A stretch of 63,292 nucleotides of DNA, counting the filler. It is 4 parts of 4 records of this genome, joined end to end, with 100 filler letters (N's around TTAATTAATTAA, not from the genome) between each part and the next. Parts side by side here need not be neighbours in the genome. Positions count along the whole stretch, not along the records: positions 39,580 to 54,716 come from DRR378314_1248; 3 more parts are not named here. The stretch is one strand, 5' to 3'. The notes under the pieces were generated by a model. It was not told the origin of the DNA and did no database searches. It saw only the letters and a program-made list of their open reading frames with translations. The position numbers and the translations under genes are program-made. This document shows positions 22,569 through 63,292 of the stretch, piece by piece (positions within the stretch are counted from its first letter, which is position 1; each line of letters opens with the position of its first letter).

Positions 22569-22644
<76 letters not shown>

Positions 22645-22679: not shown

Positions 22680-22779
22680 NNNNNNNNNNNNNNNNNNNNN
22701 NNNNNNNNNNNNNNNNNNNNNNNTTAATTAATTAANNNNNNNNNNNNNNNNNNNNNNNNNNNNNNNNNNNNNNNNNNNN
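22680..22779. other. Artificial contig linker
   Basis: N44-TTAATTAATTAA-N44, giving stops in all six frames. Confidence 0.98.
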
Positions 22780-39479: not shown

Positions 39480-39579
39480 NNNNNNNNNNNNNNNNNNNNN
39501 NNNNNNNNNNNNNNNNNNNNNNNTTAATTAATTAANNNNNNNNNNNNNNNNNNNNNNNNNNNNNNNNNNNNNNNNNNNN
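39480..39579. other. Artificial contig linker
   Basis: N-run with TTAATTAATTAA. Confidence 0.98.
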
Positions 39580-39785
39580 TTATATTTTGCATGTATGGGA
39601 GAGCATGTACGACAGAGTGATATACGGATTGCTGTTGCGGCAACCCTGCAGTGCGCTTCGACCCTGTGTGTGCGGCAGCGAGAATCCGCTCGCGGTGGTG
39701 CAGCGCTTGGTCACACAGCAAAGGCGATCGCTCCTGTGCGTTGTTCTGTCGCCCAGTCTTGGGACGTGCAGGGCATCTGTGTGTA

Positions 39786-41042
39786 ATGACGGGCCCGGAC
39801 CTTTCTACGCTTGAAAAGCGTGTCAAGAGCACGGCTACATCGATTGAAAACTTGACGAGTCGCTTGGAGCAACTGGAAGCCGGTGTGTAGCAAGGAAAAG
39901 CAACGTGCCTTCGCCACGGATGGAGCACGCTTCCGCTGTGGCTGCGCTATTCTGCGCGTGAGCTTCGCGTGCCTTCCGAGGAATTCCGCGCGTTTTTCTT
40001 TTGTCCATTTTTCAATAGGCAATGGTTTTGTACGAGATTTTTTTTTCCGAATAAATAGTGACTTCATGTCAGATTGTACTGAGGAGTGTCAAAAGGGCCT
40101 AGCGCGGGTGACTGAGCAATCCTGTACGCAAACCGCGTTGGCTGTTTCGGTGCTGTTTTTGTTTTTTGGTTTTGTATTCCTGCAGGATCGGCGAGCACCG
40201 GCGCAACCTCTGGCGCTGCTATTTCGCAGGAGGAGCTCCTGAACGCGTTGAAAGACGTACGCGCCGCTCTTGTTGCAGAAACAGCTACTGCGGAGAAGTA
40301 CGTTCCATGCAATGTAAAAACTGCACGTTCACGGTAGGAGACGCGTGGTAATTTTCGTGAGGAGCGGGGCCTGGGTTCGCGTGACCTTTCGCGCACTGTG
40401 CCACCGCGGGCCGCTTGCGCAGCCACACAAGTGACGCCTCGCTTCAGGGCGAGCAGCCGACTGTATTTTTGACAGTTTTCTGCACTTTCTCCTGATGCGT
40501 CATTTTCGATCCTCTGAATTGGGAGCAGAGCACGTGACGATGCAGAAAAGGTATGGGTACTTCCGAGTATGCCGTGTGCGGTGCACTCGCGAAACTCTCC
40601 TGCCAAGCAGAGTACGCCTCCCTCCGTGCTCAGCAGTGTGCGCCTCTCGCTGCAAGGGTGCTGCAGCCGATTTTCCGCTTGGGGCGTGTTTACCGAACCT
40701 CTCACGCCGTTGTACTGCCCATTTCCTTCACCCACCTTGAACGCATACGATTTTAAACTATGAACGGGAAGACTGCATTGCATATTGCCATCCTCTGCGC
40801 TCGGCAGTGTGCAAGCCCCTTTGCACGGGTGCTTGTGCCGGACGAAGTTGCCGCGCGTCCACCGAACCTCTGACGCAGTTGTGGTTTCCGTTTCCCCCCT
40901 CTACAATTCCGTTCTTTCAATGATCTGAATGGTGCAGGCTGCGTTGCAGGTTGCCGCTCTTGAGAAGGAAAATGCGAAATTGCGGTACCGTGTCAAGCAT
41001 TTGATTCGCAGCCTGGAGGAAGAGGAGGCGGCGCGCGCATAG
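39786..41042 (+). CDS. Eukaryotic 4-exon gene for a small coiled-coil protein (about 111 aa)
   Basis: Exons 39786-39882, 40186-40297, 40529-40550, 40938(or 40950)-41042; all introns GT-AG and phase-consistent; ends LEKENAKLRYRVKHLIRSLEEEEAARA. Confidence 0.7.
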
Positions 41043-41267
41043 TTGCTGCGCACGTTCCAGTTTCTATGACAAATTGCCTTGTTGCTTAACGAACCGAGGG
41101 ACGCGACTGAGAGAAACATGTATTGCGCGGGTGTCCCCAGGTAGCCCATTCGATCTTGGTACCAAAGATCACATCGATGACCTTGAGTATTAAAAAAACC
41201 ATCGGAAAAAATAAAGAGAGTATCATACTGTGCGGCAACCATATGCGCATCGGAAGCGGCATTCTCG

Positions 41268-44200
41268 CTAGAAAGGTGCAGCAGAGCTGTTGCAACGCCG
41301 CGCCTCGTCGCGAAGCAGCACGTTCGAAATTTCATTCCCACTAGTTTCCATCATTAGTGCAGTATCGAAAAAAAAACTGATCTCATTGAAAGGGTTCACA
41401 AGAGACGGCAGCCGCAACCCCGCCATCTTGCGCACGGGCACGTCCCATTGGCGGGCGCTTGCCAGTGGACCGCTATGACGACGGCGCCGGCTCGTTCCGC
41501 GCCTCGCCGACCTCGATTCGCCGCCAGTATTTTTTCTCCACGTCGCGATCGAAAGAGTAAGCGCGACGCAGAAACGCCTCGTACTCATCCACAGGCACAA
41601 CACCGTGATCTTCGATTGCGTAAACAACCTGGAACAGTCACAGCGAAACGCGCGCCGCAGCTTGTCATTACTCGCGAGCGGCGAACCAACTGAGGCTAAG
41701 CAACGAGTGCACATTGCGCACAGCGACATCTGCGCTCGGCAGCACCTCCGATACATTCGTGCTGTACACTGCGCAAGCCGGACACCACACGACTGATATA
41801 CAGCCCAACGTACATCCAGATTTTGCCCCCGTGAGAACAGAAGTGGCCGATTATGAATCTGCATGCGGAAGGACGGGTTGGAGTGGCGCACACGATCCGA
41901 TCCAACGTTTGCGAAAACGTCCGCAACAAACAACAGAAAGCACAACGGTCAACCCCAGTTCGACCGGGTGGACACCCCCAACGAAATGCACAGCGGACAC
42001 CACAACCATCTAAAAATGGCGGGCATGCATGTCAATTTTTTTGTTCAAAGATGCTCTGCGAAACATTTTCCAAAGGAAAGTTTCCCCAGCCCAGCGATCT
42101 TCGGAACGCGTCCGCTCGTCGGCCGTTGCATTTGCGGCGCGTGCGCGTGCCGTGAAGATGGCGCGTCGCTCGTTACGCACGAGGCCATACTGCTGGAGGA
42201 AGGAGCGGAGAATGCGCCGCTCTCGTTCGGTCGCACCTTGACATCGTCCACCCGACAGCGGACGTTGAGAGTATACTTCCGGGCGCGCGTATCGCGATCG
42301 AGATGGAGAGGCTCACTTGGCTCCAAGTACGAAGAAGATGACGCCGACTCACTCCATCCCTTGTCCGCGGATACGGTTTCGACGTACACTTCGAGCGCTT
42401 GGAGCGCCTTGTTTGCGAATGCAGACACTCGGAGCGTTTCATTCGCGTGGTCATCAGTAATGCGATCGAAGAGCTACATTGGGCCAGAGCAAGAATCAGC
42501 GCATTCATATTGCTTCTGGTAAGGATTTTCTTTTGTTTCGCACGCGCAGAATGGCAAATGACGGCAAATTCCCAGCAGCTATGCGCACCGGTGCGCAGAG
42601 GCTGAGCTCAGTGGCAGTGTACCCTCACTCTGAAAGACACAACCGCCTCAAACTTGTAGCTCGCGAATCCTACGTCGCCGTCGAAAGCAAACGAGTATTC
42701 CTCGACAAAGATGTAGCGTGGACGACGAAGAACATTGCGATGTCGCAATATAGCGAGCCGGCACGCAGTGCGTACGTCTCTCTCCGCCTTTTGACTGCAC
42801 CCGTTGTGCTTGTCAGCAGAGAGCGGGAGGGGGGAGGAAGTCCTGAGGACTAGCATACCTTGGCAAGAAGCTTGCTATTCACTTCAAACGACTTCTCAGC
42901 AAGAGCTGTCGATCCGTACACGATGCGTTCGATATCTTGTAATGTGATGTACTCGAAACCGAACATTTGCTGTGTATTGTGGTAGCAAACGAATGCCCCG
43001 TCCATGTTGCCAATACGCAGCTGCAGCGAGTACTTCAAGAAGCATGTACGGGCCATATCGTAGAACTCGCGCTCGTACGACTCTGACCATCCACTCAAGC
43101 GCCGCAGGCTTCCGCGCGAAAAAAATAAATAAATAATAGTACGTAGCAACGCGAGAGGAGACCGAGAAAGAGAAGCAAATCATTTGAGTCCAGCAGTAGC
43201 GAAGGACAACGAGAAGCATCAAGCTCGCGGGTCTACGGCATCATGGGATGGAACGCCCGCCCGCCGTAGTGCTCGTGCAAAGGAGCCGCACAGTGTGAAT
43301 CGGACAAGGAGCCAGGCTCAAGACGTATGCGCGGTGCGACATGCATTCGCAGCCATCGTACGCGGTAATTCATCGACACATATACATCTATGTATATCTA
43401 GTACAAGCACAGCGGTCGTTTCTCGACGACGGCGTCAGTAACCCCAGAACGGCCAATCAGATATGTGCTCCGTTTGTCGTGACAACGGCAACGGTGGCGC
43501 ACTGGTTCATTCTACATCGCCTGGAAACCATGGACACCTGCGATACGTACCCGTAGTCCAGATAATCTTTGTAGTTATCACAGTCGAGACGAATGGGCGC
43601 GGTTGCGCGAGTCTTGATGTCAAATGTCTTGAAAGGGCGGCGGATGCGCGGATGGTAGCAATCCAACTGCGAGCGCAGCGCAAATGGGCCCATCTGCGCA
43701 TCGCAAGCAGCAGAGACGAGCACGCAGCAGTAATGCAGGAGGCGTTGACCATGAGTGATTCGGCTGCGCGAAGGAGCACAGGCACATGTAGCTTCTCGAT
43801 GATATGGGTTTCCATTACTTGGCAAATTCTTGGAGTACATGCAGTGGCATGCGCGTAACTTCGCTTTCCGCAAAGCGCCAAGCAGATACTCTGCGAACTT
43901 GGCATGCCTCGGACGAGTGAGAATCGCAGCACGCGATGCTCAAGCAACCCGGCGCCGCCGACGAAAGCCGCACACGCCATCCTGTCACTCTCAAGTTTAC
44001 CACAGCCCACGAGCACATGCCTGCAAGAAAAACAAACACTCTGAATACGTTTCCATACCTTGGAAAAATGGTATGGCTGCGGACGATCGCATTGCTCCGG
44101 ATTGCTCTCTTTCAAGACAGTACGACGAAACTGCGAACGGCGAGACAATGAATTCCAATCAAACAGCAAGCGCATCTCAGTCGTGCGAAAGCTACGAGCG

Positions 44201-46795
44201 GTACCAGCCCACTAAAGCGGACAGAAGAAGAAAAAAAAACCAGCATACAAGGAACCAACATGCCCGGAGTAAAAAGGCATATGCGGGTGCACTGGCCGAA
44301 GGGCACCGTGCTCGCTCTGTAGTTTCGGTGGAACAGACGCACAGGTTGCGCTCGTTGCCTCATCACGAATCGCTAGGCAACACCTTAGGTAGAGCCCAGG
44401 GGCGCAGGCGGAGCGCAATGGATTCGTGGTTTCTGTGAACATGCTGACAAGGTATTCATCACAGAAAAGGGGTAGGGAATGATAGGCTTTGCACAGCGTT
44501 CGCGCGGAGAGCGGGTGCTACAAGCAAGTGTACTTAGGGTTGCAGGCTGAGCACACAGCGTACTTCTTCTGCATCCATCGTCACCATGCGCTCCAGGCTC
44601 TTTCCGAGGTCCATCAAAATGCGATTCGTTGGACGGTACGGCGAATTGTCCGAGTCGATCGCGTACGCACCATCCAGAGGTCGCAGCATGATTGCAATGG
44701 GTTTGCAAGCCGATGGCGCCACATTGCGTGGCTACCAGAAGACAGAGTGATCACGGTATATTGCAAAAGCAGCCGCGCGGTTCAAGGATTAGAAAAAATA
44801 ATAATAATTCGAGTACTCTAGCGCAAAGAGCGTCGCATGATTCTTCCAACGCAAGCAAATGTGCCTGATCGCGTGGGTTGGTACAGTACGACCACCGTGT
44901 AGTGGGAAGAATGGGGAGCACATCCTTCTGTAGCATATGTGCCGCAAACTATCACCGCAAACTTAGCATCTCTGATGACTCTCCAAAGCCGACATTTCCC
45001 ACTCGCGAGGCAGCTTCTTGACCAGGATTGCAGCTTCCCGCTTCGTTCTCTCCTCTCCATCAGGCAAGTGTCCTTCGCAGCAGCGGCGGGAGTTTCAGCG
45101 ACGGCAGATTGTGCACACTCATAAACCGTACCTGATTCTCGAATGTTTTGGAAAGCCCTTCTAAACGTAAGTCTTTAAAATTTGATAGAAGAAGATACAA
45201 CTGCCCCATTATACCACTTATGGAGGAAGTTGAAGCCTGTTGTCGATGATGTACGCACGCAACGAACCGCAGACCAACGATGCGTCAATTCCAGGTTGGA
45301 GGACCCTTCCGCAAGGCGCATCTCCAGAAATACAAAGCACAGCGCAGTTAGGACCAAGCCACAATCACATCCTGGCAACGTAAGAATCTCATCTTAAGGC
45401 AAGCACACAATTCTACAGTATATCATTGCAAATAAAATTCACTCAATGAAATGGTCTTTCCATGCACCCACGGGGAAGAACCACGCGCCCGCGCCACTAT
45501 TCACGGTAGCAGCAGCGACCACGCCGAGGATTCAACCGTACTGAATGGTGCAGACCCGGGAGGTCATTTTTGGCTGACCTTGTACTTGCAGCTGTGCTCG
45601 GATGCCAGCTCATGAAGATTCTCATCCTTTGACGATGTTGTAAACGGCGGAAGGGCGTCGAATGCGATTTCTTCAGGTTGGTGAATACGACCGAGAAATT
45701 CATCAAAAAGATAAATGCTGCACCAAGGAACACCAGCGTCAGTCATTGTGAGCTCACGGCCGGAACACCGGCAAGAGAAACGCGTTCTACGACGGGTGCC
45801 CTGAAGCAGGGACTGCATGCACACTCATCCTCCCCCCCAACATGCAAGCGAAGCAAAAAAAAAAACTTCAGATATTCAGATACTGTAATTGAAGAAAACA
45901 GAATGCAACATCGCACGCAGGGATACCGCCGACAATAGGCCCCGTGCAAATCAGCGCCACAGCCAGCGCACATGCTACGTGCCCGGTGCTGGGCTACAAC
46001 CGCTCCTCCGCGTTCGTGCGTACAGCACGCGTTGCCAAGACCGATGGACGCGCGCACGCGGCATCCATTGTATTTGAAATCGTACGATATATCTCAAGTA
46101 TTCTGCATTGTCTCGCGCGCACCTTGGATTCCTCATATCGCGAACCGTGTGGATACCGGAGCTGGAGATTCCCTTGCCAAAGAGGACGCGCTCCAAATCG
46201 AACGAAAGCGAGGGCACCTCAACTGAGCTCATTTCCGCCGGCGTCACGTCTGCAGAGAACATGCATACCCCGCAGACATCAAGGTCAAGAGAGACATTTT
46301 CACATGTATATCTGAAAGAAAACCATGACCGGGTGCGAGAACGACGAAAACCCGGAGCTGCGCGCTGCAGTCTACTTTTGACACGCGCGTTGACAACGCG
46401 CGAGCCTTCAGCTACAGCACCTGCTTCAAGCGTTCGTGTAGTGACGGGAACCACCGAGCAGGGCACCTGCCAAAGCGAATAGAGCCGATTCAATGCAAAC
46501 CACGGTATTGTCCATCACGATTGTATCTGTCTATGATAGGGCAGTCCTCCTAGATGCGATGATGGCGGCACGAGCGGGACAAAGCTTCTGCAACGGTTGC
46601 CGAAAGAGCCCGCGTGCTCGCAGCGAAGTGCGACACGCGCGTTGCGCCGCGAAAAGCACATACTCTTCGGACGCTCTCTAGCGTTTCGCGTCGGCGTGCA
46701 GGGCCGGTTGAACCCGAAGTCCGCACATTTCGCAGTATCGACAAACGAAATAGCAGCCTTTCTTTCGGAAGCCAGGGTGTAAATACTGCTGCCAT
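41268..46795 (-). CDS. PET127: Eukaryotic multi-exon Pet127 mitochondrial 5'-3' exoribonuclease homologue
   Basis: Exonic motifs VPSLSFDLERVLF, FDALPPFTTSSKD, ILMDLGKSLERM, YHFSK|MGPFALRSQLD...FDIKTRA (43693-43551), ESYEREFYDMAR..FLKYSLQLRIGNMDGAFVCYHNT (43108-42859), LFDRIT (42473-42191); GCCATGG start at 46795; 3' end approximate. Confidence 0.85.
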
Positions 46796-46913
46796 GGCAA
46801 TGAGGAGGCCGCGGCCCAAACATCGTGTGGCGAGGGTGACAAGGCCGCCCCCCCCTTTGGCAGCTGCCACTCGTTCACTGCCAGCGCGTGCGTCTGTGGG
46901 TGCGTGCGCGCGG

Positions 46914-46940
46914 GTGTGTGTGTGTGTGTGTGCGTGCGTG
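46914..46940. repeat. (GT)n/(GCGT)n microsatellite
   Basis: GTGTGTGTGTGTGTGTGTGCGTGCGTG. Confidence 0.8.
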
Positions 46941-48225
46941 CGAGCGTCTGCGCGTGTGTGAGTACGTGCATACTACAGTGCCTTTCTGCTGGCGCGTTTG
47001 TCACTTGCAGACACGACACTCACACGCATTGCACCAAAACGTTGTTATCCACAGCTACTAAAGGAACTTTTTTCGACAAGAGGCGAAATAATAATAATCA
47101 CGCGCTGCTTTGCTTGCACGTAAAGCAGGGCAAACGACAAGCGCCGCGCCTCTGTGTCGAGTGGCAGCCAGCGAGCAGTCGTGTCTGCCAGCAGGACACG
47201 CCGCAGCTACACGCGACGCATCGGAGAATGGGCACGGAGAAACTCAAGTATGCGCCCATTTTGTGTTCTTCACCATTATGAGAGGTCCCTGGGAATCCTG
47301 CACCAGTCAAAGAGTAGCATATGATGCGCTTGGTAGAAAGAGTGGGAGCGAAACACGGACCTTCCTTCGCCCACGGCGACCGCGCAAGAGTTCGCCAGCG
47401 CAAAGGCGAGCCAGCTGGCGCAGGCGAGCTTGCAGCGAAGCGAGCCGATCGCAGAGCACTGCGCGTGCTGCGCGCGGCGCGCGCACACTGCAGCACTCGC
47501 ATGCTTGACTTTCCGCAACAAAGGAGATTCACCACGTTCGTATATCAAGAATTTTCTTCACGTGGCACGGTCAATCTTGATCCAGAGATCTCACAGCGGC
47601 GCCTTGGGCGACAACCAGGCGTACAAAGCTGCCTGACAGCTCGTGGCGTCGACAATGCTGGAGCAACTGCACCGCGCTGGCGCTTTCTCCATGTGGTGCC
47701 AGCACACGCGGGCGCGACGCCAGATTCTTCGCGTTTTAGGTTCAGATTGTAGGGTTTGAAATTGCTAATCGCGCTGTGCGAAACGTTGTTCGGTGTGCTT
47801 GGCCACTCTCGCTGCTTATCTGCGAGCACTCCACAGGATCTGCCGTCCACGCTGACTACAGCAGGACTTGTTCGATGTCCACCCTAGTGCGATGTTGGAA
47901 ATGCGTTGCGCACAGGCCTGCAGCGGCGCGTGCCCCGTACTTGTCTGTTCCTCAGCGCACGTACACGCCGTGGGAAGCGTTCTCGGCTTCCTCTGCGCAT
48001 TTGATTGTCTAGTATTTTTTTCGTTAGTAGTACGCTCTTGGCGAGAGAGGATCCAGGCTACAAAATCCTCGCTGTAAACTGCGATCCAAACGTATCTGCT
48101 TTCGTAGCCCGCATCGACGGTCGAACAGCGCTGCGCCAGCGCGGTTTGAGTTCGGCGTCGTGTGTCTGTGAGCGTTCCCCGCGGCCCTTGGACGTCCGTG
48201 TCCGCACTGTTTCGTTTGTCTCGCC

Positions 48226-51200
48226 ATGACGAAGCGCAAGGATCGCAAGGCGGAAAGATCAGGCGAGAAAGAACCAGTCTTTTACGTTGAACATATTCTT
48301 GGCAAACGCATTGTCAAGGTAAGGGACGTAGTGGGGCCGTTTCCTGCACCGCTCGCGATTGCGCAACCGGACCGGGTGCTCCTCTGCGAATAGTTTGCTC
48401 CACGGTGCGGCTTGGGACGTTTGTGACACAACACTATGCAGAGGAAATCAGGTATCCCAGTTCCCAAACCCGGGTGAGGAGATGCTTGATTTTGTACCTT
48501 TTATCGCTGACAGCGGTGGGGCGTGCGGATATTCGTCAGTGGGGCAGCGCCACGCGCGAAGGGCCGTGTCACTGCCGGATTGGAGCGCGTGTGGTTGGCG
48601 TGTCGGCCGCTCTGCTTCTCTGCCTTTCTGGCGGCCAATCCGGCGAGCGAGAGCGCGAGCGCGGCGTCCAGCTTGCGGGCGTGCTGTGGCGCTGAACGCT
48701 GTTCACGCGCTCGCAGCGCTGGCGATGGCATCCTGCGTGTGGATCTCACCATCGCTGGGTTCCTTTTTATATTATATCAGTGCTTGCTCTTAGGTTGTGC
48801 AAAAAAAGCTTTGTGTGCTCTTTAGGGCCAGGGAGCTTGCTTGCGCGCAGTGAGCAGTTTGCCCGCGAGAAAGCAGAGTGCCTCGCAGTGCGGACTCCGC
48901 TTGCGCACACAGGAGGCGGACTGCTGATGGCGTGCGCGCGCTCTCCGCTTGGGCGCCCGCGGCCCATCGTGCCGCCTGAGGCTGTGCGTGGCGAGTGTCG
49001 TATCGCCGCGGATAGTTGGGATGTTTCATAGCGTATACGCTAGTAAATTCGATGTTGACCGTTCGCATGCTGTACTCGTGAGGTCGTCGCGCGCGCTCAC
49101 CAGGCGAATGCCGTCGTTTCTGATGACTGCTATTTCGTGGTGGTCGGTTTTTGCTGTCCGTGCGCGCTTGCACACGGTATTCGTTCGTCGGACGTGCATC
49201 GCGTTTGTCATGGTTGTTCTTTCTCGGGCTCGTGTGTTGCGATGGACTCGACAATGTTTCACGCAGGGAAAAGCGGAGTATAAAATCAAGGTATGTGTGG
49301 TAGTGCTTCTCAGGGATGATGTGGATTGTTTTTTCTTTTCATTTTTTATAGGCGAGAACAGGAAGCGAAATGCGTCCTGGCGCTGTCGTGCTCGCCATAC
49401 GTTCACATAGGACGAAACGCTTTCCCCATACGAGGCAGTCCGACGCGCGGGCGCGGCGGAACTTTTTGCAGTGCATGGATTACTGCGTAGTAGCGTTCAC
49501 AGTGATGTTGATGAAGTCTTCGTTTAGGCACGTGTCCTTCTCGTATCCTTCGATTGACGGTGCGCGCTTGGCGTTTCTCTTGCGTTGCGATGGGTTGTTC
49601 GGGCGATAGGTGCGAGCGGCCGGTGTGCTGGATTCTGCGAACAAATGGTGCTTTGTACAGCTCGCCTTGCACCCGCGTGAATATGCACGCCCACCGTGCA
49701 TGCATATCCTGCCCATACATGTCCAGACTGATTGTTACTCTTATTTCTTGCTTTTTGTTCGCGGATGCGCTCCCATCTGCACACATCCCGTCTTGCCTGC
49801 AGTGGCTTGGCTATGATCTTCCAAAGTACAACACTTGGGAGCCGGCGGACCACATTCCTGCGGACATTGTTCGCGACTACGAAGAAACGAACAAAAGTGG
49901 GTTTTGCTTTGTGCGATTGTAGTTGCATTTGCCTGTTGTTCTTAGTTCTTCCCTCCGCTCAAGTGGGGTAACTTCTGCATGCCGCATGGCATGAGCTCCC
50001 GTATCTCCGGTGAGCGGACAGCCTTGCTTATTGGCCGTAATGATGCGCCGGGATTTTGCTTGCTTGTTCAGATTCTAAGAAGCAGACGCGGGAGCACAGT
50101 TCGTCAGCTACCGTCAAGTCGGAGAAAGCCGAGGTATGCGCTTTGCTTGGTATTTGTAAATATAACATAGGTTTTGGGTTAACTCCCCCTTTTTCGCCAG
50201 CCGATGGCACGATTCTTTTTTGGCAATGGTGTTTGTTGAGATTGGCTTCGGCGTGGATGGTGATCGTGCGGCTTAGCCGCTTGGACCGCCCTGACCTATC
50301 ACTGCACTGGTTGGCCCCGCTTCTCTCTGATTTCGCACACCGGGTGCCTTCTTTCTGCCATGACATGCCCGTCTGGCTGCTTTTCAGGATACGTGCTGGA
50401 ATGGCTCGCTGAAGAAGAAGGGAACGCACTACTGCCACATGCAGGGATGGAATGCGAACAAACGAGGTGTCGTTGAGCGGCTGTACGTTCCTCGCCTGGA
50501 TGCGGCCGGCGTTGTGTGGCTCTTGCGCGGCGCGACGTGACAATAGAGCCCGGCTCTGCTGCTGCGCTGCCCGCAATGTATGAGAAATGGAGTAGTAGGG
50601 ATGGGGCGGTATTTGCCAGGACTGTCGTCGCTGTCTGCCTGCTTTTCGTGTGACCTTCTCCGCTAGAGATAGGGTTAGGGCAAGTGTTAGGGCCATGAAG
50701 TTTGCGATTGTTTGTTTGCTTTTTATTTGCGGTGCGCTGCGGCAGAGCATCTGCGTACGCAGGGCTGTGCTCGACTCGGTTCGTAACAGCAGCGAAGAAT
50801 AGTATATACTGCGGTGCTCATGTATATGTTTGTGGCGCTTTTGATTTGATTTTGTTTTGTTGTTTGTCGCTGGATTCGTGCGATGGTAGCAGCAGACGTC
50901 ACACGCTGCGTACGCTCACTCGTCCAGGAGGAGTCGTTTGTTGGTGTTGGTGTTGTCGTTTCTTTTCGTTGGTTTTTCTTCTCTCGCTGGAATATGCAGA
51001 ATGTGTGCTCATGTTGCAGCGTACATTTTGTGACAGCTGTTGATGCAATTACCGGCGCATGTGTTATTGGGTGTATACAGGCCAAAGGATCTGAATATCT
51101 TCTTTCAAACGGAAACGTCGTACGTGATGGAGCATCTGTTCTCCATGGCAGACGTGTGCTACTTTAAGCCATCCAATTCGCAGGAAGATCGGAGCGGGTT

Positions 51201-51914
51201 TGAAAAGCTATGCGATTCGCTGAAGAGCTACGAGCGTGTACGTTTTTGTTTCTTGTCCACCGTAGCTTTCAGTAGGTGTGCGGCGGTTGCGTTGTAGAGC
51301 GGAAGAGGTAGAGCCATGCAGTACGCATGGAGCCGATTTCCGTGTTGTTTTCAGGACTGGAGGGCCGCAAGCTCGGGACATTCCCTTAGGCGTACGGCAA
51401 CGTCAGAAAAGCGATACAGCTGCGCTGTGCTAACCTTGACGGCGCCGAAAGCAAAAGGATGGGTCTCTCGCGTACTGTCAGAGATTGGAAACGGGAACAT
51501 ACTTCCTAGCTGCAGCAGTGAATAAGACCAAAGCTGCCCGTTTGTTTCTTGGCAGTCTTCAGTATGTCAGGATGGAACATCGCAGGCATACGCCTCTGGC
51601 GTTTCCCGATTGTTGCCCCTGAACTTGCAATGAGACTTTCTTTTTTCGTGCACTAACGGTGGTGTTTCGCTTTTGAATTTCATCTTTTTTCTCTTTTTTT
51701 TTGGGGGGGGGGTGACTGATGCGTGCAGTCTGCGCTTGTGCTGCTCGGCAGTCGTGGAGAAGCAAAGGAAGTGATGGTGCTTGTGCCGCCGGGATCGTTT
51801 GAAGCCTCGAAAGTTTCCATCCCCTCCGATGGCATGCTTGGCCTCGTGCTTCCTGCCGGCGATCGGTTTATTGTTGTTCGCCGCGTACCGAAGGACAAGT
51901 CTCACTTGAAGTAG
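48226..51914 (+). CDS. Eukaryotic 7-exon gene: N-terminal chromodomain plus C-terminal SPOC-like domain (236 aa)
   Basis: Exons 48226-48318, 49267-49290, 49803-49896, 50072-50133, 50388-50482, 51081-51237, 51729-51914; all GT-AG, phases match; chromo FYVEHILGKRIVKGKAEYKIKWLGY...NTWEP; SPOC-like WNGSLKKKG...LP...YFKP...LVPP...MLGLVL. Confidence 0.78.
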
Positions 51915-52257
51915 TTGTAGTTTGCCGGCGCGTTCGTGCGCGCGCGTGCTGTAGTGCATTGCACGCGCCGCGAGTTGCTGGACTGCAGAGTGTGCTGCGC
52001 TGGCAGCTCTGCCAAGAATATGCGTGGCGTGCTGCTCACGAAGTTGCACTTGTGTACATACATGCATGACGGGTTACTTCTGATACGCATCCTGTATTCG
52101 TAATGCTGCGATCTGTACACACGACGCGGCGGCACGGTGGGGAACCGATGGGCCTTCATGGTACGCAGAGCAAAAGCGCGCTGCTGCAACAGCAACGCGC
52201 GTGCGCTGCCGTTGCAGTTCCGGCGCGCACGCCGCGCGCCGAGAACCGCAACCATCG

Positions 52258-54716
52258 CTAATTGTACTGCAAAGGCGCCTCGATAACGTCCCAGCGCATG
52301 ACCATCTGGTCCATTCCGCCCGTAGAAATTACATAGCGGTCGTCAGCCGCCCAGCGTACGTTGGTGACATGCGACGAGTGCGCTCCGTACCGCTTGCACA
52401 GGATCGTAGGACCCTTGGTGCACGCTGGATACGTGAATAGACGCAGATCGCCAAAGTCGTCTGCGGTAACGAGGAGTTTTCTATCGTTACTCTGCATGAG
52501 AGCGTTGATGTCGTTCCCCGCAGAGTCACGCGGCCAGATGGACTGGCACGTCCATCCGAGCACGCATGTGAGGGGTTTCCACTTGATTACCGTATGCTCC
52601 TTGCGATGCGTGACAATGTGCTTCTCGAGCACGTCCCAGAAGAGCAGCTCGTACGCATTGCACGTGGACTAGAGAACAGCCAGACCGACGCGACGACAGC
52701 AGATTGCACAACATAAGATTCTTGTAGCACAGTGCAGAGAAAATGCACCCGCCTGGACTCTACCACGGATACGGTTGCCTCCTGGGAGGCAGACTGCTCG
52801 GTAGAGTGCAGGTTTGGAGCAGCGTCCGTGCCAGAAGGGCGACAGCGTGCGGTGGTTGGCAATCCCGCCGAATGTCGTCGACCTGGCGAACCAAGGAGGA
52901 GCAATACACAAACGCACGCGCGCGCACACACATTCCTGCACGCGGTGTACGACATGGGTATGGCCCAGCTAAAAATTCTTTTTTCCCTTAATCCTACCCG
53001 TCTGATGCGTCGCGAGACAGGCGCACGGACTACCGACCGCTGGTCTGCGAAAACCTGGCGGGAGCGCGGCAAAGATATGCGCTGCACGAGCTCGCATGCA
53101 CCCGCCTTTCGCACGGCACTTGGAATACATCACAGGCGCTTCCGCAAACCTTCAGTATGAGGACACGGTCTTTGCTTTGTTACCATCCACGGTAGTACAC
53201 GGTATGATATGCAATATTCGCGTATGTCGCATGTGCTACCCCATCCTGCTGCCCCTTACCTGCAAGAAGTGCGAGTCCTCGGACCAATCGAAGTGGATGA
53301 CGGAGCCAGAGTGGCCTTCGCATGTCCACCAGCGCTTGAACGTTTTGAGGTTGTAGATGTCGATGTACAAATCACGCGCCACAGCCAAGAAGCGGCCGTC
53401 TGGCGAAAACTTCAGCTCGTGTTGGGGATTCTCGCGCATTTCGTTTCGAATACGGCTAGGCTTGATCCACTTCAAGCACCTGGTCCGGTTCAGCAGGAGA
53501 GCACACAACGAAAAGCAGGCAACCGAGCGGCCACGTGCAAACCTCCCATGTGAGCGACCGTCGCACTCGAAACGCCAGTGTCGCACTACGCAATGCGAGA
53601 CGGATTCGCGAGGGAAAGAAGAATAACGCCTCGCCAGCAAAGAGTGCTGACTCTCGCGCACAGCAAGGGCGCGAAGAGGAACGCAGAGAGCGCTTCCTTC
53701 CGACTGACAAATGGCCCTCGGCGCAACTAGACAACGCACTGGTATCCCAGCCCCTTGATCCTTTCGGGTGGGGAGCGGGGAGCAGTATACGGCCATCGGC
53801 AAGAGAGGCGCGCGCCCTGCCGAACGTACTTGAACGTCTGTGTTTCGAGCAGGGCAACTTCACCCGAGCCCAGGCCGACCGCAAGGACACGCCCGTCTGG
53901 TGAATACTCGGCGCCACGGGCCTTTTCGGGAATTTTAAACGCGTGCAATGAAGTGCGCAGATCTGCGTCCCAGATTCGGACAGTGCGGTCACACGCACAC
54001 GTGGCAAACTGGGCTCCCGTTGGAGACACTGCCAGTCCCCACACTTCGTCCTTGTCTTCCATTTTCCCGTAATGTCCCTGGAGCGTAACGGCCATCCGAA
54101 GAGTGTATGCGGCAAAGCTCGCGTGCGGTTAGGTACTTGATAGTTGGCGAGCACACGCACTCCCGAACGCCTTCCCCGCCAGAGCAATCGCCCTCGCAGC
54201 TTGCGCATGACAAACGCAGGTAGCATAGGGCCGTTACCAGCCAAATACGAGGATGGAACAGCAATCCCTTGATCAAAAAAGAGCTCCAGGAAAGCCAAGT
54301 ACGCGGGGAACATTGGGAATCGATGGCAAAGCGAAGGCGCGCCGGCTACGCGCAGAACGGCACGCTATAGCAATCTCGCGCAGCCGCCGCGCGGCCAGCG
54401 CGCAGGGTGGGCAGGGCCGCACAGGAGCGCTTACACAAGCGGTTGTGCGTCCCTTTCCTTTCCTTTCCTTTCGTTTCGATAGTTTGTCGGCCCCACATGC
54501 GCTAGTCGACAGGGCTTCGTACTGCAATATGGCAAGGGCATGGAACAGCCAGCGCCCAACAAGCGGAAGATACGCGGCCAGCCACAAGCAAGAGGCAGCT
54601 GCTGGGCATACCTGCATGACAATGTCCGCGCTTTTCGTGTCGATGCGCACGCGAATGATCTCATTGGACGTGGTCGCAACATAGAGCGTGTTACCCATCT
54701 TATCGATTGTCATTGC
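52258..54716 (-). CDS. Eukaryotic EML/EMAP-like WD40 microtubule-associated protein, 3' part
   Basis: Exons ..54716-54612, 54077-53830, 53479-53260, 52668-52258; EVWGLA, GHSGSVIHFDWS, TCVLGW, DINA, LLVTADDFG, HSSHVTNVRW, STGG motifs. Confidence 0.88.
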
Positions 54717-54816
54717 NNNNNNNNNNNNNNNNNNNNNNNNNNNNNNNNNNNNNNNNNNNNTTAATTAATTAANNNNNNNNNNNNNNNNNNNNNNNNNNNN
54801 NNNNNNNNNNNNNNNN
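54717..54816. other. Artificial contig linker
   Basis: N-run with TTAATTAATTAA. Confidence 0.98.
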
Positions 54817-54858
54817 TAACTGTTCACTATTAACTATTAACTGCTCTCAACGAAGCCT

Positions 54859-55479
54859 CTAGCTAAGCGGAATATCCCTATCGCTCGCCTTAATGATCTC
54901 CCCTTTCAGGTCCTCATACGTTTGTACTGAGGGGAATTGGGGGAATTCGGCGATGACGTTGTCGGGGGCGTGGAACAGGATGCCCTGGTCCGCTTCGCTG
55001 AGCATGGTGGTGTCGTTGTAGGAGTCGCCGGCGGCGATGATGCGGTAGTTGAGGGTGTGCAGGGCTTTCACCGAGGCGCGCTTGGGGTCTTTCTGGCGCA
55101 GGATGTAGTCGGTGATGCGGCCGTTGTCGTCCACCGCCAGGCGGTGGCACAGCAGGGTCGGCGAGCCGAGCTTGCGCATCAGCGGGCGGGCGAACTCATA
55201 GAAGGTGTCCGAGAGGATGATCAGCTGGAAATGCTCGCGGGCCCACTCGACGAACTCCACCGCGCCGTCCAGCGGGTCCAGGGTGTCGATCACCTTCTGG
55301 ATGTCCGGCAGGCCGTAGCCGTGCTGGTCGAGGATGCCGAGCCGCATTTTCATCAGCTCGTCGTAGTCGGGAATGTCCCGGGTGGTGGCGCGCAGCTCGT
55401 CGATACCGGTGCGCTCGGCGAAGTTGATCCAGATTTCCGGAATCAGCACCCCTTCCAAATCGAGACAAAGCAATTCCAC
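54859..55479 (-). CDS. thrH: Phosphoserine phosphatase/homoserine phosphotransferase ThrH
   Basis: CLDLEGVL.PEIW, ATTRDIPDYD, LSDTFYEF, AAGDSYNDT. Confidence 0.93.
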   Translation of the reverse strand: MELLCLDLEGVLIPEIWINFAERTGIDELRATTRDIPDYDELMKMRLGILDQHGYGLPDIQKVIDTLDPLDGAVEFVEWAREHFQLIILSDTFYEFARPLMRKLGSPTLLCHRLAVDDNGRITDYILRQKDPKRASVKALHTLNYRIIAAGDSYNDTTMLSEADQGILFHAPDNVIAEFPQFPSVQTYEDLKGEIIKASDRDIPLS

Positions 55480-55564
55480 GATGATCCCCTAGGTCGTTGA
55501 AGGCGGGCACAATGTAGCCGCGCGCCCGGCGCTTTGCAACGGCCAGGGGCCGCCGCCGGGCGCG

Positions 55565-56569
<1,005 letters not shown>

Positions 56570-56657
56570 TTACGCGGAGTTATAAGAATAGCCGAAATTA
56601 TGCATTCCAAGCATAGAGGCAAGCAAAGACGCTGGCAACGGGAAGCCGGCGGGTGTG

Positions 56658-57572
56658 TCAGGCGTCTTGCGGACGCGGATTGGAAATGCCGTGGGGCACA
56701 TGGCCGGCGGCCACGTGTTCCCGGGCGGACTCGCAATGGCCCTGCTGGTCGTCGAAGAACACATCGGCGCCGAACGCTTTCAGGAAGGGCCCTTTCGGCA
56801 GCCCGCCCAGGAACAGGCTTTCATCCAGGCGGATGCCCCAGCCGCGCAGGGTGCGCACCACCCGTTCATGGGCCGGCGCCGAGCGGGCGGTGACCAGCGC
56901 GGTGCGGATCGGGCAGCGTTGCGGGTGGAATTCCCGCTGAATCTGGTGCAACGCCTCGAGAAACCCCTTGAACGGACCGTCGCTGAGCGGTTGCCGGGCG
57001 GCCTGCTTCTCGCTGGCGGTGAAGGCTTCCAGCCCGCTGCTCTGGAACACCTGCTCGGATTCATCGGAGAACAGCACCGCGTCGCCGTCGAAGGCGATAC
57101 GCAGCAGGTCGTCCTTATGTTGCAGCCCGGCGCCGGAAAGAATGGTGGCGGCGGCGTAGCCGGCATCCAGCACCTGGCGCACATCCTCCGGGTCGGTGGA
57201 CAGGAACAGATGCGCGCCGAACGCGGACACATAGCGGTGCGGACTTTCGCCGCCGGCGAACGCCGCGCGGGTGATCGGCAGCCGGTAGTGCTCGATGGAG
57301 TTGAACACGCGCAGACCGGTATCGGAGCTGTTGCGCGACAGCAGGATCACCTCGACCCGGCCGGCGCCCTCTTCCAGCTCGTTGATGGCCAGCAGTTTGG
57401 TCACCAGTGGAAAGGCGTCGCCCGGCGGCAGCACATCGTCCTCATGGGCGATCTGATAATCCTGGAAGGCGTCCAGGCCTTCCTTCTCGAACACCCGGTG
57501 GCTGTCGCTGAGATCGAACAGGGCCCGAGAGCTGATCGCCACCACCAATTTTCCGTCAAAGGACGCCGGCAT
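56658..57572 (-). CDS. 5'-nucleotidase (cN-I-like)
   Basis: VAISSRALF, LLSRNS, RIAFDGDAVLF, VTARSAP, FFDDQ. Confidence 0.9.
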   Translation of the reverse strand: MPASFDGKLVVAISSRALFDLSDSHRVFEKEGLDAFQDYQIAHEDDVLPPGDAFPLVTKLLAINELEEGAGRVEVILLSRNSSDTGLRVFNSIEHYRLPITRAAFAGGESPHRYVSAFGAHLFLSTDPEDVRQVLDAGYAAATILSGAGLQHKDDLLRIAFDGDAVLFSDESEQVFQSSGLEAFTASEKQAARQPLSDGPFKGFLEALHQIQREFHPQRCPIRTALVTARSAPAHERVVRTLRGWGIRLDESLFLGGLPKGPFLKAFGADVFFDDQQGHCESAREHVAAGHVPHGISNPRPQDA

Positions 57573-57779
57573 AGCCCACCCTTTTTCCACTGTCATTCAA
57601 TTGGGCGCAGTATCACCGCTGACCGGTAAAACCACAACACGACCACCGTGTTACAGGAATTGACCAGAAAGCCTGCAAAGCCAACCCCCTTGGCGGTTGT
57701 CCAGCTTAAAAATGTGACATACAGTTTCCTGGACGTCCGCACCGCGGACCCAAATCAGCACGGGGAAAGGGAGTCATCC

Positions 57780-58433
57780 ATGGCCGTTAATAAGGTAAGA
57801 GGTCGTCTCGACGAACTGCAGGCGCAGATTCGCAAGCTCGCCGAGCGCTTTGATAATGAACGCGACAAGCAGATCGCCCAGCTTGAATCTCAGCTCGATA
57901 AGGCCCGCCAACGGGTCAACGAAGAGATGAAGCGACGCCGCGACAGCCTCAACCGGCTGGAGAAACTGCAGAACGAGTACCGGGACAAAGCCAACGCCAC
58001 GGTGCAGCGCCAGCTCGACCGCGCCCGCAAGGCCGTGGACGACGCCCGCAAACGGGTGGACGACTCCGAAGCCCGCAAGCGCTTTCTGGAAACCGAAGTG
58101 AAGGTGCTCAAGGCCACTGCCAAACAGGCCAACAGCCTGGCCAAGGTGATCAACCAGTACCAGAAGGATCTGGAGAAGCGCGCCAAGGACATCGAGAAGC
58201 GGGTCAGCCCTTCCGCCCGCAAGGCACCGGCCAAGAAAGCCGCCGCCAAGAAAAGCGCGGCTAAAAAGAGCCCCGCCAAGAAAGCCGCGGCCAAGAAAAG
58301 CACCGCGAAAAAGAGCGCCGCCAAAAAGAGCGCGGTGAAGAAAGCCCCGGCCAAGAAGAAGGCGGCCCGCAAGGCGCCCGCCAAAAAGGCGGCGAGCTCC
58401 GGAGACTCCGGCGGCGCCACCCCCTCAAGCTGA
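57780..58433 (+). CDS. Coiled-coil protein with histone H1-like Lys/Ala tail
   Basis: GGAG RBS, long charged helical N-region, C-terminal KAPAKKAAAKKSAAKK repeats. Confidence 0.75.
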   Translation: MAVNKVRGRLDELQAQIRKLAERFDNERDKQIAQLESQLDKARQRVNEEMKRRRDSLNRLEKLQNEYRDKANATVQRQLDRARKAVDDARKRVDDSEARKRFLETEVKVLKATAKQANSLAKVINQYQKDLEKRAKDIEKRVSPSARKAPAKKAAAKKSAAKKSPAKKAAAKKSTAKKSAAKKSAVKKAPAKKKAARKAPAKKAASSGDSGGATPSS

Positions 58434-58438
58434 ACGCA

Positions 58439-58470
58439 AAGCGGCCCGGGCATCACCACCCGGGCCGCTT
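58439..58470. terminator. Hairpin between convergent genes (probable bidirectional terminator)
   Basis: AAGCGGCCCGGG-N8-CCCGGGCCGCTT. Confidence 0.65.
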
Positions 58471-58493
58471 CGCTTCACGCCGGCTGAACAGGG

Positions 58494-59162
58494 TTACGGC
58501 TGCAGCAGCAGCGACTCGAAATACGCCACCACCGGTTTCTGGTGGGATTTTTCCATCGCCGGAATGCCCTTCTCCACCGAGGACGCGGACGCCTTCTTGA
58601 TGGTGGCGCGGGCACCGGACACCAGCCCGCGATTGATACGGCCCAGCTCCAGATTGCCCACGGTTTTGTCGAGATAGTTCTCGATGGCGCCGGCGCTGAT
58701 GCCGTCCATCACTTCCACCAGGCGCGGCATCTGGCCGTTGCCGTCGGCGAATTCCTGGAACACCAGCGAGGCACGCTCGGCCAGCGCCGGCGACAGCGGG
58801 TAACCGATGTAGACCTGACCGTCCTTCTCCAGCCGCAGGTTGCGGAAGTGCTCGGCCAGCGCGCGCTGCTCTTCAACGCTGGTCTTGCGCATCAGGCGCC
58901 CGGCCAGGCCGTGGGCGGCTTTACTGATGACCTTCATGGCACCAAGGATCACGTTCACCGCGGTGCCCTTGGCGTTGACCGCGTCGATGGGCCCGGTGAA
59001 GTAGGTGTGCAGCACTTCGTCGAGGAAGGGATCCATGATCGCTTCCAGTTCCTGCACATGGTTGCTGTCCGGTTCTTCGCGGGTAATTTCCAGGAAGGCG
59101 TCGATCCGGTCGCGCAACTCGTCGGAGGCCGGAAAGGCCACGTAAAGGGTGGGTTGGCTCAT
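58494..59162 (-). CDS. Hypothetical protein with internal two-fold repeat
   Basis: 222-aa ORF with typical high-GC codon pattern; the two halves resemble each other. Confidence 0.7.
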   Translation of the reverse strand: MSQPTLYVAFPASDELRDRIDAFLEITREEPDSNHVQELEAIMDPFLDEVLHTYFTGPIDAVNAKGTAVNVILGAMKVISKAAHGLAGRLMRKTSVEEQRALAEHFRNLRLEKDGQVYIGYPLSPALAERASLVFQEFADGNGQMPRLVEVMDGISAGAIENYLDKTVGNLELGRINRGLVSGARATIKKASASSVEKGIPAMEKSHQKPVVAYFESLLLQP

Positions 59163-59276
59163 AATTATCGGCTCGGCTTACTGCGATTCAGAAGCCGCGG
59201 ATGATAATTCAAGCCCGCGCCGGAAACGTCCGCCTTCGCGACTGCGGGCCTTGTCTGTGGGGTCAGTCGAAGCGGA

Positions 59277-59729
59277 TCAGACGGCGACCCGTGCACGCCA
59301 GGCGTCCAGCACGCCGGCCAGGCGCTCGGCGGCGGCACGCACCGCCGCGCCCTGCTCTTCCTCCAGGCGCAGCCGCGCCACGTCCTGACGGTTGCGCTCC
59401 GCCGGCGCCAGCTCGCGGCGCTGCTCGCCGCGGGTGAAGTGACCACAGTCTTCCGCCAGACGGTGGATCGCCGCCAGATCCACTTTCGGCTCAATGCCCT
59501 GGGGCAGGCAGTCCAGCAGCACGCTGATGCGGATGCTGGCCTCGGCGCTGTCCACTTGTTCCTGCAGCAGGGCGCGGCAGAGAATGCTCAGGTTCTCCAG
59601 CACGTCGAGATGCCGGGCGGCCTGCCGGCGCCGCTCTTCACGTTTGCGCGAAGCCCGCAGGATCAACATCCCCAGCAGCGCGCCTATGGCGAGCCCCATG
59701 AGGGCCACGAGTACCAACTTCCAAGCCAT
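59277..59729 (-). CDS. DUF2489 family protein
   Basis: N-terminal TM, LSIL.RALLQEQV...EASIRI..LL, R..QD..RL.LE motifs. Confidence 0.7.
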   Translation of the reverse strand: MAWKLVLVALMGLAIGALLGMLILRASRKREERRRQAARHLDVLENLSILCRALLQEQVDSAEASIRISVLLDCLPQGIEPKVDLAAIHRLAEDCGHFTRGEQRRELAPAERNRQDVARLRLEEEQGAAVRAAAERLAGVLDAWRARVAV

Positions 59730-59843
59730 GCCGGTGCATCCTTAAAGCGATTGATTTGCGACCTACAAGCCACCATTGTACGGCACGTGGCATCAGCAAC
59801 CCATGAACACCACCGCAACGCCGCCCACGGAGAGGCAACGCCT

Positions 59844-60284
59844 TTGGATCTGAACCTCCAGCGCGACTGGCAACCCCTGCTCGAACAGCTCCAGCCCCTG
59901 CTGCCGATTCTCACCGTCACCGGCGTGGTGATGGCCGTGGCGTCGATGCTGGCGATTCCCTGGCTGCTGGTGCGCATGCCCCAGGATTACTTCAACACCC
60001 CCAGCCGGCCGCTCCATTACCGGGGCCCGCTGGGCTGGTGCCTCTGGCTGGTGCGCAACGCCCTGGCGCTGGTGCTGCTGGCCGCCGGCATCCTGATGCT
60101 GGTGCTGCCCGGCCAGGGCATTCTGACCATTCTGATCGCGCTGATGGTCAGCACTTTTCCGGGGAAATACCGCATGGAACGCGCTATCATGCGCCGCCCG
60201 AGGGTGCTGCGCGCGGCCAACTGGATTCGCCGCCGCTACCACAAGCCCGAGCTCAACCCACCCCGCGACACCGAGAGGCCCTGA
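59844..60284 (+). CDS. PGPGW-like domain membrane protein
   Basis: GGAG RBS then TTG; MP.DYF, GILMLVLPGQGILTIL, FPGKY. Confidence 0.7.
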   Translation: MDLNLQRDWQPLLEQLQPLLPILTVTGVVMAVASMLAIPWLLVRMPQDYFNTPSRPLHYRGPLGWCLWLVRNALALVLLAAGILMLVLPGQGILTILIALMVSTFPGKYRMERAIMRRPRVLRAANWIRRRYHKPELNPPRDTERP

Positions 60285-61328
60285 ATGCCCATTGATAGTC
60301 CCGCCATCCGCTGGCTCGACGATCATTTGCTGCTGCTGGATCAACGCCATCTGCCGTTACGCACCGAGTGGCTGGCGATCCACGACGCCGCCGGCGCCGC
60401 CGGCGCGATCCGCGACATGGCGGTACGCGGCGCCCCGGCGATCGGCATCACCGCCGCCTACGGCCTGGCGCTGGAAGCCCTGGGCCTGGGCCGGCGCGCG
60501 TCCCTGGAAACACTGCGCCCGGCGCTGGAAACCCTGGCCGCCAGCCGCCCCACCGCGGTCAATCTGTTCTGGGCCCTGGAGCGCCTGCAGCGGCTCGGCG
60601 CCGACCTGGAAGGCGAGGCCCTGGGCCGCCGCCTGGCCCGCGAAGCGGAGAGCATTCACCAGGACGACCAGGCCGCCAATCTGCGCCTGGGCGAACTGGG
60701 CGCCGCCCTGCTGCCCCACGACGCCCGCGTCTATACCCACTGCAACACCGGCGCGCTGGCCACCGGCGGCCACGGCACCGCCCTGGGCATCATCCGCTCC
60801 GCCTGGCGCGGCGGCCATCTGCGCGAGGTGATCGCCGGCGAGACCCGCCCCTGGCTGCAGGGCGCCCGGCTCACCACCTGGGAGCTGATGCAGGAAAACA
60901 TTCCCGTCACCCTGGTGGCGGACAGCGCCGCCGGCATGTTGATGGCGGCGGGCCGCGTCGATGCGGTGGTGGTGGGCGCGGACCGCATCGCCGCCAACGG
61001 CGACACCGCCAACAAGATCGGCACCTACGGGCTCGCCGTGCTGGCCCGTCACCACGGTCTGCCGTTCATCGTCGCGGCGCCGGACTCCACCCTCGACCCG
61101 GCCATGGCCGACGGCAGTGGCATCGTCATCGAGGAGCGCGCGGCCGACGAAGTGCGCCAGGTGGGCGGCCAGCCTCTGGCGCCGGAGCACTGCCCGGTGT
61201 ACAACCCGGCGTTCGATTTGACGCCGGCGTCGTTGATCACCGCCATTGTCACCGAGAGCGGCGTGGTGCACTCGCCGGACGCGGCCAGCGTCGCCGAGCA
61301 TCTGTCACGCCTGAACCGGAGGTCCTGA
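60285..61328 (+). CDS. mtnA: Methylthioribose-1-phosphate isomerase
   Basis: LDQR.LP, VRGAPAIG, SRPTAVNL, THCNTG, ETRP.LQG, GADRIAANGD.ANKIGT. Confidence 0.95.
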   Translation: MPIDSPAIRWLDDHLLLLDQRHLPLRTEWLAIHDAAGAAGAIRDMAVRGAPAIGITAAYGLALEALGLGRRASLETLRPALETLAASRPTAVNLFWALERLQRLGADLEGEALGRRLAREAESIHQDDQAANLRLGELGAALLPHDARVYTHCNTGALATGGHGTALGIIRSAWRGGHLREVIAGETRPWLQGARLTTWELMQENIPVTLVADSAAGMLMAAGRVDAVVVGADRIAANGDTANKIGTYGLAVLARHHGLPFIVAAPDSTLDPAMADGSGIVIEERAADEVRQVGGQPLAPEHCPVYNPAFDLTPASLITAIVTESGVVHSPDAASVAEHLSRLNRRS

Positions 61329-61957: not shown

Positions 61958-61988
61958 TCGGCGGCGGCCCCCTGAGGAGGAAAACCCC

Positions 61989-63217: not shown

Positions 63218-63269
63218 CGCTCGGCGTTTAGCCCGGGGGGGTTCCCTCCAGAGGCTGTGTCAGGCCCTT

Positions 63270-63292
63270 GTGGGAGCGGGCCCTGCCCGCGA
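63270..63292 (+). repeat. GTRG-type REP element at the contig end
   Basis: GTGGGAGCGGGC-CCT-GCCCGCGA, matching the Pseudomonas-type REP pattern. Confidence 0.6.

Follow-up and report, generated by a model that had tools for sequence, protein, structure and literature searches.

A seven-exon eukaryotic gene in a mixed assembly encodes a small chromodomain protein with a probable SPOC-like C-terminal domain

Within a 63,292-nucleotide (nt) stretch of DNA composed of four joined contigs (the window), positions 48226 to 51914 carry a plus-strand gene of seven exons for a 236-amino-acid (aa) protein that begins with a chromodomain. The reading that we favor, with reasonable rather than high confidence, is that this is a genuine nuclear gene of a eukaryote, the product of which joins the chromodomain to a C-terminal domain that is most likely a divergent SPOC-type beta-barrel. 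The gene itself is solid, and the data given below establish its exon model, the unity of its transcript and the chromodomain. That a SPOC domain stands in the place of the chromoshadow domain of HP1 is probable, on the strength of one profile match below threshold and the collinearity of that match with the domain.

Splicing the seven exons by their coordinates (Table 1) gives an open reading frame (ORF) of 711 nt, corresponding to 236 codons and a stop, for a basic protein of 27 kDa. All six introns (948, 512, 175, 254, 598 and 491 nt, as recomputed from the model) run from GT to AG and have a pyrimidine-rich tract before the AG; the exon phases are consistent, and the donor of exon 5 lies at 50482/50483. 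An initial annotation, made from the letters alone, had proposed seven GT-AG, phase-consistent exons and a 236-aa ORF, and our splicing reproduced this model with exact start and end coordinates; all of the peptide stretches quoted in it (WNGSLKKKGTHYCH, LPKDLNIFFQT, VLVPP and MLGLVL, among others) are found in the translation. Because the 310-nt leader contains no ATG and an in-frame stop closes the frame upstream, the transcript has its first ATG at position 48226. Beyond the chromodomain, the hinge (residues 68-92) has an isoelectric point (pI) of 9.4 and is rich in Ser and Thr (8 of 25 residues), and the C-terminal domain encoded by exons 5-7 (residues 93-236, 144 aa) has a pI of 9.1, with 21 Lys or Arg residues.

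A search of public sequencing runs with positions 47900-52200 returned two runs from one organism, X1 and X2, which held 0.59 and 0.06 of the sampled words, respectively; the kind of both is listed as 'RNA? (a guess)', and no run that holds the region is on record as RNA. The X1 contigs on the region contain six joints, all GT..AG, whose skips equal the six intron lengths given above, so that joints and model introns agree base for base. One contig of 835 nt (depth 77) extends from 47916 through exons 1-6 across five joints, and another of 375 nt (depth 60) covers the final 30 nt of exon 6, crosses the sixth joint and continues past exon 7 as far as 52073. Since the chromodomain exons and exons 5 and 6 occur together in the first of these contigs, there is one gene and one transcript; a split into two separate genes, for which the initial annotation had left room, fails on this contig and on the second, which connects exons 6 and 7, and all six of the junctions that it had offered for confirmation are present in contigs of this run of guessed RNA. 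Depth is 51-77 in exon-bearing bins, as against 0-13 in purely intronic bins. Contigs that join exons only, taken with this ratio of exon to intron depth, form the pattern of RNA, which a processed DNA copy may formally imitate. The gene is transcribed and spliced into one mRNA of approximately 1.2 kb, and the ends of X1 and X2 contigs near 52073 are a weak hint of where the RNA ends. The X1 pieces listed show no differing letters, and 8 of 9 records aligned to the window are at least 99% alike.

Irregularities in these contigs were seen within two of the introns. One X1 contig of low depth (2.4 of 11.1) has an A-run in intron 1 that is longer by one A at position 48800, the cause being either polymorphism or a homopolymer error in material that had not been spliced. 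At 51682-51716 (intron 6), just upstream of the exon 7 acceptor, a T-run is followed by a G-run (T8-9, G10); contigs break there, and the stretch was skipped as a repeat when reads were placed.

To characterize the protein we scanned the exons one by one, as unspliced translations, against Pfam and against the sequences of the PDB. Exon 3 alone (31 aa) matches the Pfam Chromo family (PF00385; E 1.5e-4, 22.1 bits, profile positions 23-52 of 53), and it falls 3 bits short of the whole-domain cut-off (25.1) because the first 22 profile positions are encoded in exons 1 and 2. Among its PDB matches at E<=1, 19 of 20 are chromodomain proteins (CBX7, the best at E 0.0037, and CBX4, CBX6, CBX8, Polycomb, HP1 and cpSRP43), the sole exception being a heme oxygenase (E 0.85). 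In the HMMER alignment, W40 and Y43 fall on both tryptophans of the W-K-G-W motif of CBX7, which we take to be cage positions W32 and W35, and F19, placed by eye, would be the third aromatic residue of the cage. Exon 1 alone has no PDB match at E<=10; the tail of exon 1 together with exon 2 (F19 to K39) supplies 21 residues, the right number for Chromo profile positions 1-22. By its sequence, the chromodomain spans approximately residues 18-67 and is of the HP1/Polycomb type, and the HP1-like N-terminal chromodomain that had been proposed is real. Its best PDB matches are CBX proteins of the Polycomb class rather than HP1, with 31 residues being too few to decide the specificity for a histone mark. 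The domain is complete only after splicing and therefore lends independent support to the gene model.

Residues 93-236 quite probably form a SPOC-like domain. For exon 6 (52 aa), the only Pfam match at E<=10 is SPOC (PF07744; E 0.12, 12.7 bits, profile positions 52-98 of 153), and this match is collinear, in that the middle exon of the 144-aa domain aligns to the middle of the profile, as would be expected. As a control, we scanned against Pfam 123 stop-free peptides of 52 aa, chosen randomly from parts of the same contig that lie outside the exons of the gene. None of them matched SPOC at E<=1; five lay inside neighboring genes and matched EML or Pet127, and nine of the remaining 118 matched some family at E<=0.12. 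By our arithmetic, a chance match to some family has a frequency of about 8%, and one to a single family named beforehand among 24,736 a frequency of about 5e-6. The domain, at approximately 16 kDa (estimated from its 144 residues), lies within the range of 15-20 kDa given for SPOC, which is a distorted seven-stranded beta-barrel with helices according to the available text of a 2023 review (PMC10111866). Read by eye, the residues follow a SPOC-like order, with a C-W-N-G start, an L-P-x-x-L-x-I strand, a helix and a V-x-Y-F-x-P strand, which would be continued by an F-E-K-L...Y-E-R-S-A-L-V segment, a V-L-V-P-P strand and an M-L-G-L-V-L strand. In the same by-eye reading, the position of the conserved Arg that anchors phosphoserine in canonical SPOC domains (SPEN R3552, PHF3 R1248; lacking only in SPOCD1) appears as Gln132, in F-F-Q-T. 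At E<=10, exons 5-7 have neither a chromoshadow match nor a second Chromo match, in line with the absence of a chromoshadow domain noted initially. A search with PF07744 of 14 control genomes and of G001, a bacterial genome related to other contigs of the window (see below), gave no match in any of them, controls included, and is uninformative.

Several results weigh against a SPOC-type barrel. The score of exon 6 (12.7 bits) is far below the Pfam cut-off of 25 bits, and its E value does not reach significance for the database as a whole. At E<=10, neither exon 5 nor exon 7 matches SPOC in Pfam (exon 5 alone has no Pfam match of any kind), and no solved SPOC chain in the PDB is matched by exon 5, 6 or 7, the first two having no PDB match at all at E<=10. 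Because SPOC had first been named from the same letters, the argument from a family named beforehand is not fully independent; the strand mapping and the Arg-to-Gln reading were made by eye against a general consensus, not from a tool alignment; the protein and contig collections that we searched contain no homologue of the C-terminal exons, and so provide no evidence of conservation; and translation of the mRNA and a nuclear location of the protein are presumed. Of the SPOC-type C-terminus first proposed, the part that stands, weakly, is the one covered by exon 6, through its match below threshold, its collinearity and the clean controls, and exons 5 and 7 add nothing to it. The same figures would suit a gene and chromodomain that are real and 144 C-terminal residues that adopt another, or a lineage-specific, fold, with the exon 6 match due to chance of the sort seen in the nine non-genic controls. 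Under such a reading one could also point to exon 7, the best matches of which are the beta-sandwich repeats of the DnaJ C-terminus at E 0.016-0.2 (a DnaJ_C-type match at E 0.2 in Pfam; E 0.016-0.58 for DnaJ C-terminal repeats in the PDB). We rejected a DnaJ_C identity as chance, however, since the similarity, over approximately 43 residues, is one of generic strand pattern and its E values are not significant; moreover, the sole family that exon 6 matches is the one predicted beforehand, at the collinear position of its profile, none of the 123 controls matches it and the size of the domain fits. We therefore regard a different fold as unlikely. Far more improbable is that the ORF is not a functional protein gene at all, being instead a spliced non-coding or decaying transcript or an artefact of a contaminated assembly. 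The kind of the run is merely guessed to be RNA, no orthologue emerged from the searches and the contig sits in a mixed assembly, but the first ATG opens a frame of 236 codons that crosses six junctions with no stop, a recognizable chromodomain is assembled only by splicing, and the X1 pieces and aligned records agree with the window as described above.

From this analysis we can propose a fold, a ligand and a role. A protein that pairs the chromodomain with a SPOC-type barrel would have four parts: a basic N-terminus, the chromodomain (cage F19/W40/Y43), a basic hinge rich in Ser and Thr, and the 144-residue C-terminal domain. The chromodomain would bind a histone tail at a methylated lysine (of the H3K9me or H3K27me type), the barrel would serve as a protein-docking surface in the role played by the chromoshadow domain in HP1, and the protein would bring a silencing, transcription or RNA-processing partner to marked chromatin. 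If Gln132 does replace the anchoring Arg, then docking may be phospho-independent, as in SPOCD1 (a SPOC protein without the key Arg, according to the available text of PMC10111866) or at the hydrophobic Chp1-Tas3 and TASOR interfaces. The product might instead be a canonical phosphoserine-binding SPOC adaptor, in which a basic patch (K99-K101 and R175 are examples of candidate residues) still functions and tethers the phosphorylated C-terminal domain of RNA polymerase II, or a phosphorylated co-repressor motif, to methylated chromatin. SPOC domains generally bind phosphoserine through patches of Lys and Arg (PMC10111866, available text), and the high pI and the Lys and Arg content of the domain here would suit such binding; with Gln132 read at the anchoring position, we consider this quite unlikely. 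A more specific form of the SPOC proposal can be entertained only tentatively, and we would sooner expect it to be wrong than right: a minimal, single-chain combination of reader and SPOC, for which the silencing complexes RITS (Chp1) and HUSH (MPP8 with TASOR), described below, use large proteins. In this HP1-sized protein, a phospho-independent SPOC domain would replace the chromoshadow domain as the recruiting surface and couple methylated chromatin directly to a partner in transcription or RNA silencing, and the lineage would be one of protists of which no relative has been described.

Like HP1 and CBX proteins, the product is a chain of at most a few hundred residues in which a basic hinge comes after an N-terminal chromodomain, here with a putative aromatic cage; it differs from them in having neither a chromoshadow domain nor a Pc box. 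A chromoshadow domain is about half the size of the 144-aa C-terminal domain. The likeness to Chp1 of Schizosaccharomyces pombe, a component of the complex for RNA-induced transcriptional silencing (RITS), lies in the pairing of domains, and a sequence relationship is not part of the comparison. Chp1, at approximately 960 aa, is several times larger. According to the available portions of two papers (PMC7532188 and PMC4981400), a chromodomain and a SPOC barrel recur in silencing complexes, in Chp1 and in MPP8 with TASOR, which agrees with the naming of Chp1 in the initial annotation as the known chromodomain-plus-SPOC protein. In Chp1, DomII and PIN follow the SPOC barrel (PMC7532188, in part), and the binding site of Tas3 lies between barrel and second domain (PMC4981400, in part), whereas the protein described here ends after a barrel-sized domain: its ORF stops at residue 236, right after the 144-aa domain, and leaves no room for the DomII or PIN of a scaffold of the Chp1/TASOR type. 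The human silencing hub (HUSH), with the chromodomain of MPP8 and the SPOC domain of TASOR, likewise couples a methyl-lysine reader to a SPOC barrel in heterochromatin and RNA silencing, and its likeness to RITS is stressed by the authors in the available text (PMC7532188); there, however, the two domains reside on separate large proteins that are assembled through TASOR DomI, whereas in the present protein a single small chain would hold both. As far as the available sources describe them, canonical SPOC proteins (TLD-SPOC: PHF3, DIDO and Bye1; RRM-SPOC: SPEN, RBM15 and FPA) and SPOCD1 place SPOC at the C-terminus, behind a chromatin-reading or RNA-reading module, as would be the case here; in contrast to these families, the match reported here is below the Pfam cut-off and the partner is a chromodomain.

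The 2023 review lists TLD, PHD, BRK, RRM, API5, F-box-like and DUF3715 as SPOC partner domains, in the architectures TLD-SPOC, RRM-SPOC and lineage-specific combinations with API5, F-box-like and DUF3715 (PMC10111866, available text); the words 'chromodomain' and 'Chp1' do not occur in it, and the pairing of a reader with SPOC is absent from the part of this survey that was available. Searches of the full-text literature yielded, among the papers listed and judged by title and abstract, no description of a small chromodomain-SPOC protein; a Toxoplasma paper that contains both terms lists separate proteins only and was set aside. The pairing is thus known in kind, from Chp1, and an HP1-sized protein made of these two domains only was not found in the literature searched, as far as its available text goes. 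If the C-terminal domain is a SPOC barrel, then this would be the smallest known protein to join a methyl-lysine reader to a SPOC docking module, a pairing otherwise found only in the large scaffold Chp1 and, in trans, in MPP8-TASOR. It would hint that the coupling of reader and SPOC arose more than once, and a two-domain protein of 27 kDa would be a tractable model for the choice of partner by SPOC barrels that lack the canonical Arg.

Searches for relatives used exon-sized queries. In the word-index protein search ('longer' class), exon 7 gave 55 candidates, none at E<=0.01, and exon 6 gave no candidate; a 41-aa unspliced stretch around exon 3, in a word-index search, gave one candidate, and none was scored. 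A phmmer search of 1.84 billion representatives with exon 6 returned two matches at E<=0.001, a 1321-aa repeat protein and a 2456-aa LapA/RTX adhesin, which we rejected as artefacts because approximately 20 weak repeat matches of 22-23 residues had been summed. All matches in the contig collections were of 17-23 residues and were selected by seed patterns. Metagenome contigs gave one 19-aa seed-pattern match, which we attribute to chance, the other exons being absent by local tblastn; genome contigs gave no match for exon 7 and, for exon 6, a 23-aa match in a metagenome-assembled genome of Cyclobacteriaceae, which we take as a pattern-selected chance match; viral contigs gave no match for either exon. 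In the ESM Atlas, the best value for exon 6 was 0.77, to unnamed and GldD clusters, and is uninformative. Prokaryotes and metagenomes dominate these collections and queries of exon size are weak, so this outcome does not show the protein to be an orphan.

Table 1. Coordinates of the gene, its transcript and the joined contigs in the window
Feature	Position	Strand	Remarks
Linker, 100 nt	22680-22779		N runs around TTAATTAATTAA
Linker, 100 nt	39480-39579		N runs around TTAATTAATTAA
Eukaryotic contig with the gene, 15.1 kb	39580-54716	.	Bounded by linkers; introns; no near match in G001
5' untranslated leader, minimum extent	47916-48225	+	X1 835-nt contig starts at 47916
Exon 1, aa 1-31	48226-48318	+	Basic N-terminus (KRKDRK), first chromodomain strand with F19; joint 48318/49267 seen
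Exon 2, aa 32-39	49267-49290	+	24-nt micro-exon, second chromodomain strand; both joints seen
Exon 3, aa 40-71	49803-49896	+	Chromodomain core: W40, Y43, NTWEP motif; joints seen
Exon 4, aa 71-91	50072-50133	+	Basic Ser/Thr-rich hinge; joints seen
Exon 5, aa 92-123	50388-50482	+	Start of C-terminal domain (C-W-N-G motif); joints seen
Exon 6, aa 123-175	51081-51237	+	Middle of C-terminal domain
Exon 7, aa 176-236 and stop	51729-51914	+	End of C-terminal domain; joint 51237/51729 in 375-nt contig
3' untranslated region, extent seen	51915-52073	+	X1 contig ends at 52073, X2 contig at 52069
Linker, 100 nt	54717-54816		N runs around TTAATTAATTAA

The window is not one molecule: its four contigs are joined by three linkers, in each of which runs of N surround TTAATTAATTAA, and we take these linkers to be the usual spacers, with stops in all frames, that are used to glue contigs together. 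It follows that features separated by a linker are not neighbors in any genome. The contigs at 1-22679 and 54817-63292 both belong to one bacterium, matching the genome G001 at 97-99% identity, and carry genes for HrpA, an MltF-like transglycosylase, GltX, transaldolase, a LysR protein and a HAD protein. The contig at 22780-39479 has a G+C content of approximately 53% and carries an ECF sigma factor, GT4 and GT9 glycosyltransferases, thrS, pheT and lepA; its genes have a DNA identity of just 64-69% to their counterparts in G001, and by its sequence this contig belongs to a second bacterium. The contig that carries the chromodomain gene has no near match in G001, and positions 47900-52100 are present in none of 70 genomes of the bacterial family. 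It is eukaryotic DNA, a contaminant or companion in a mostly bacterial draft assembly, which mixes at least two bacteria and one eukaryote. Because the window is mixed in this way, attribution to a single organism is unsafe and findings must not be credited to one; the chromodomain gene is uninformative about the bacterium that makes up most of the window.

Other genes lie on the same eukaryotic contig. Upstream of the chromodomain gene, and pointing away from it, is an intron-split, Pet127-like gene (42850-43939, minus strand), in which two exon-sized ORFs match the Pfam family at profile positions 185-272 and 137-186 of 274 (E 6e-34 and 1e-12, respectively). Pet127 is a family of mitochondrial RNA-processing proteins. 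An Atlas look-up with a Pet127 exon returned clusters of Ascomycota and Ciliophora at 0.85-0.87, which does not discriminate the lineage. Downstream, an intron-split gene for a WD40 propeller of the echinoderm microtubule-associated protein-like (EML) type occupies approximately 52258-54716 on the minus strand and is truncated where the contig stops. The EML and chromodomain genes are convergent, approximately 190 nt separating the 3' end of the chromodomain transcript as seen (52073) from the region of the EML stop codon.

Among the bacterial contigs, the first carries a tRNA-Ala(GGC) at 22569-22644, followed by the first 30-odd bases of an apparent second tRNA that is cut at the contig end (22679); the matching contig of G001 ends near the same spot, which is the typical picture where an assembly breaks within a cluster of tRNAs. 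At the start of the last contig, approximately 35 nt (54817-54851) recur at six or more other sites in G001 with 88-100% identity, constituting a short dispersed repeat.

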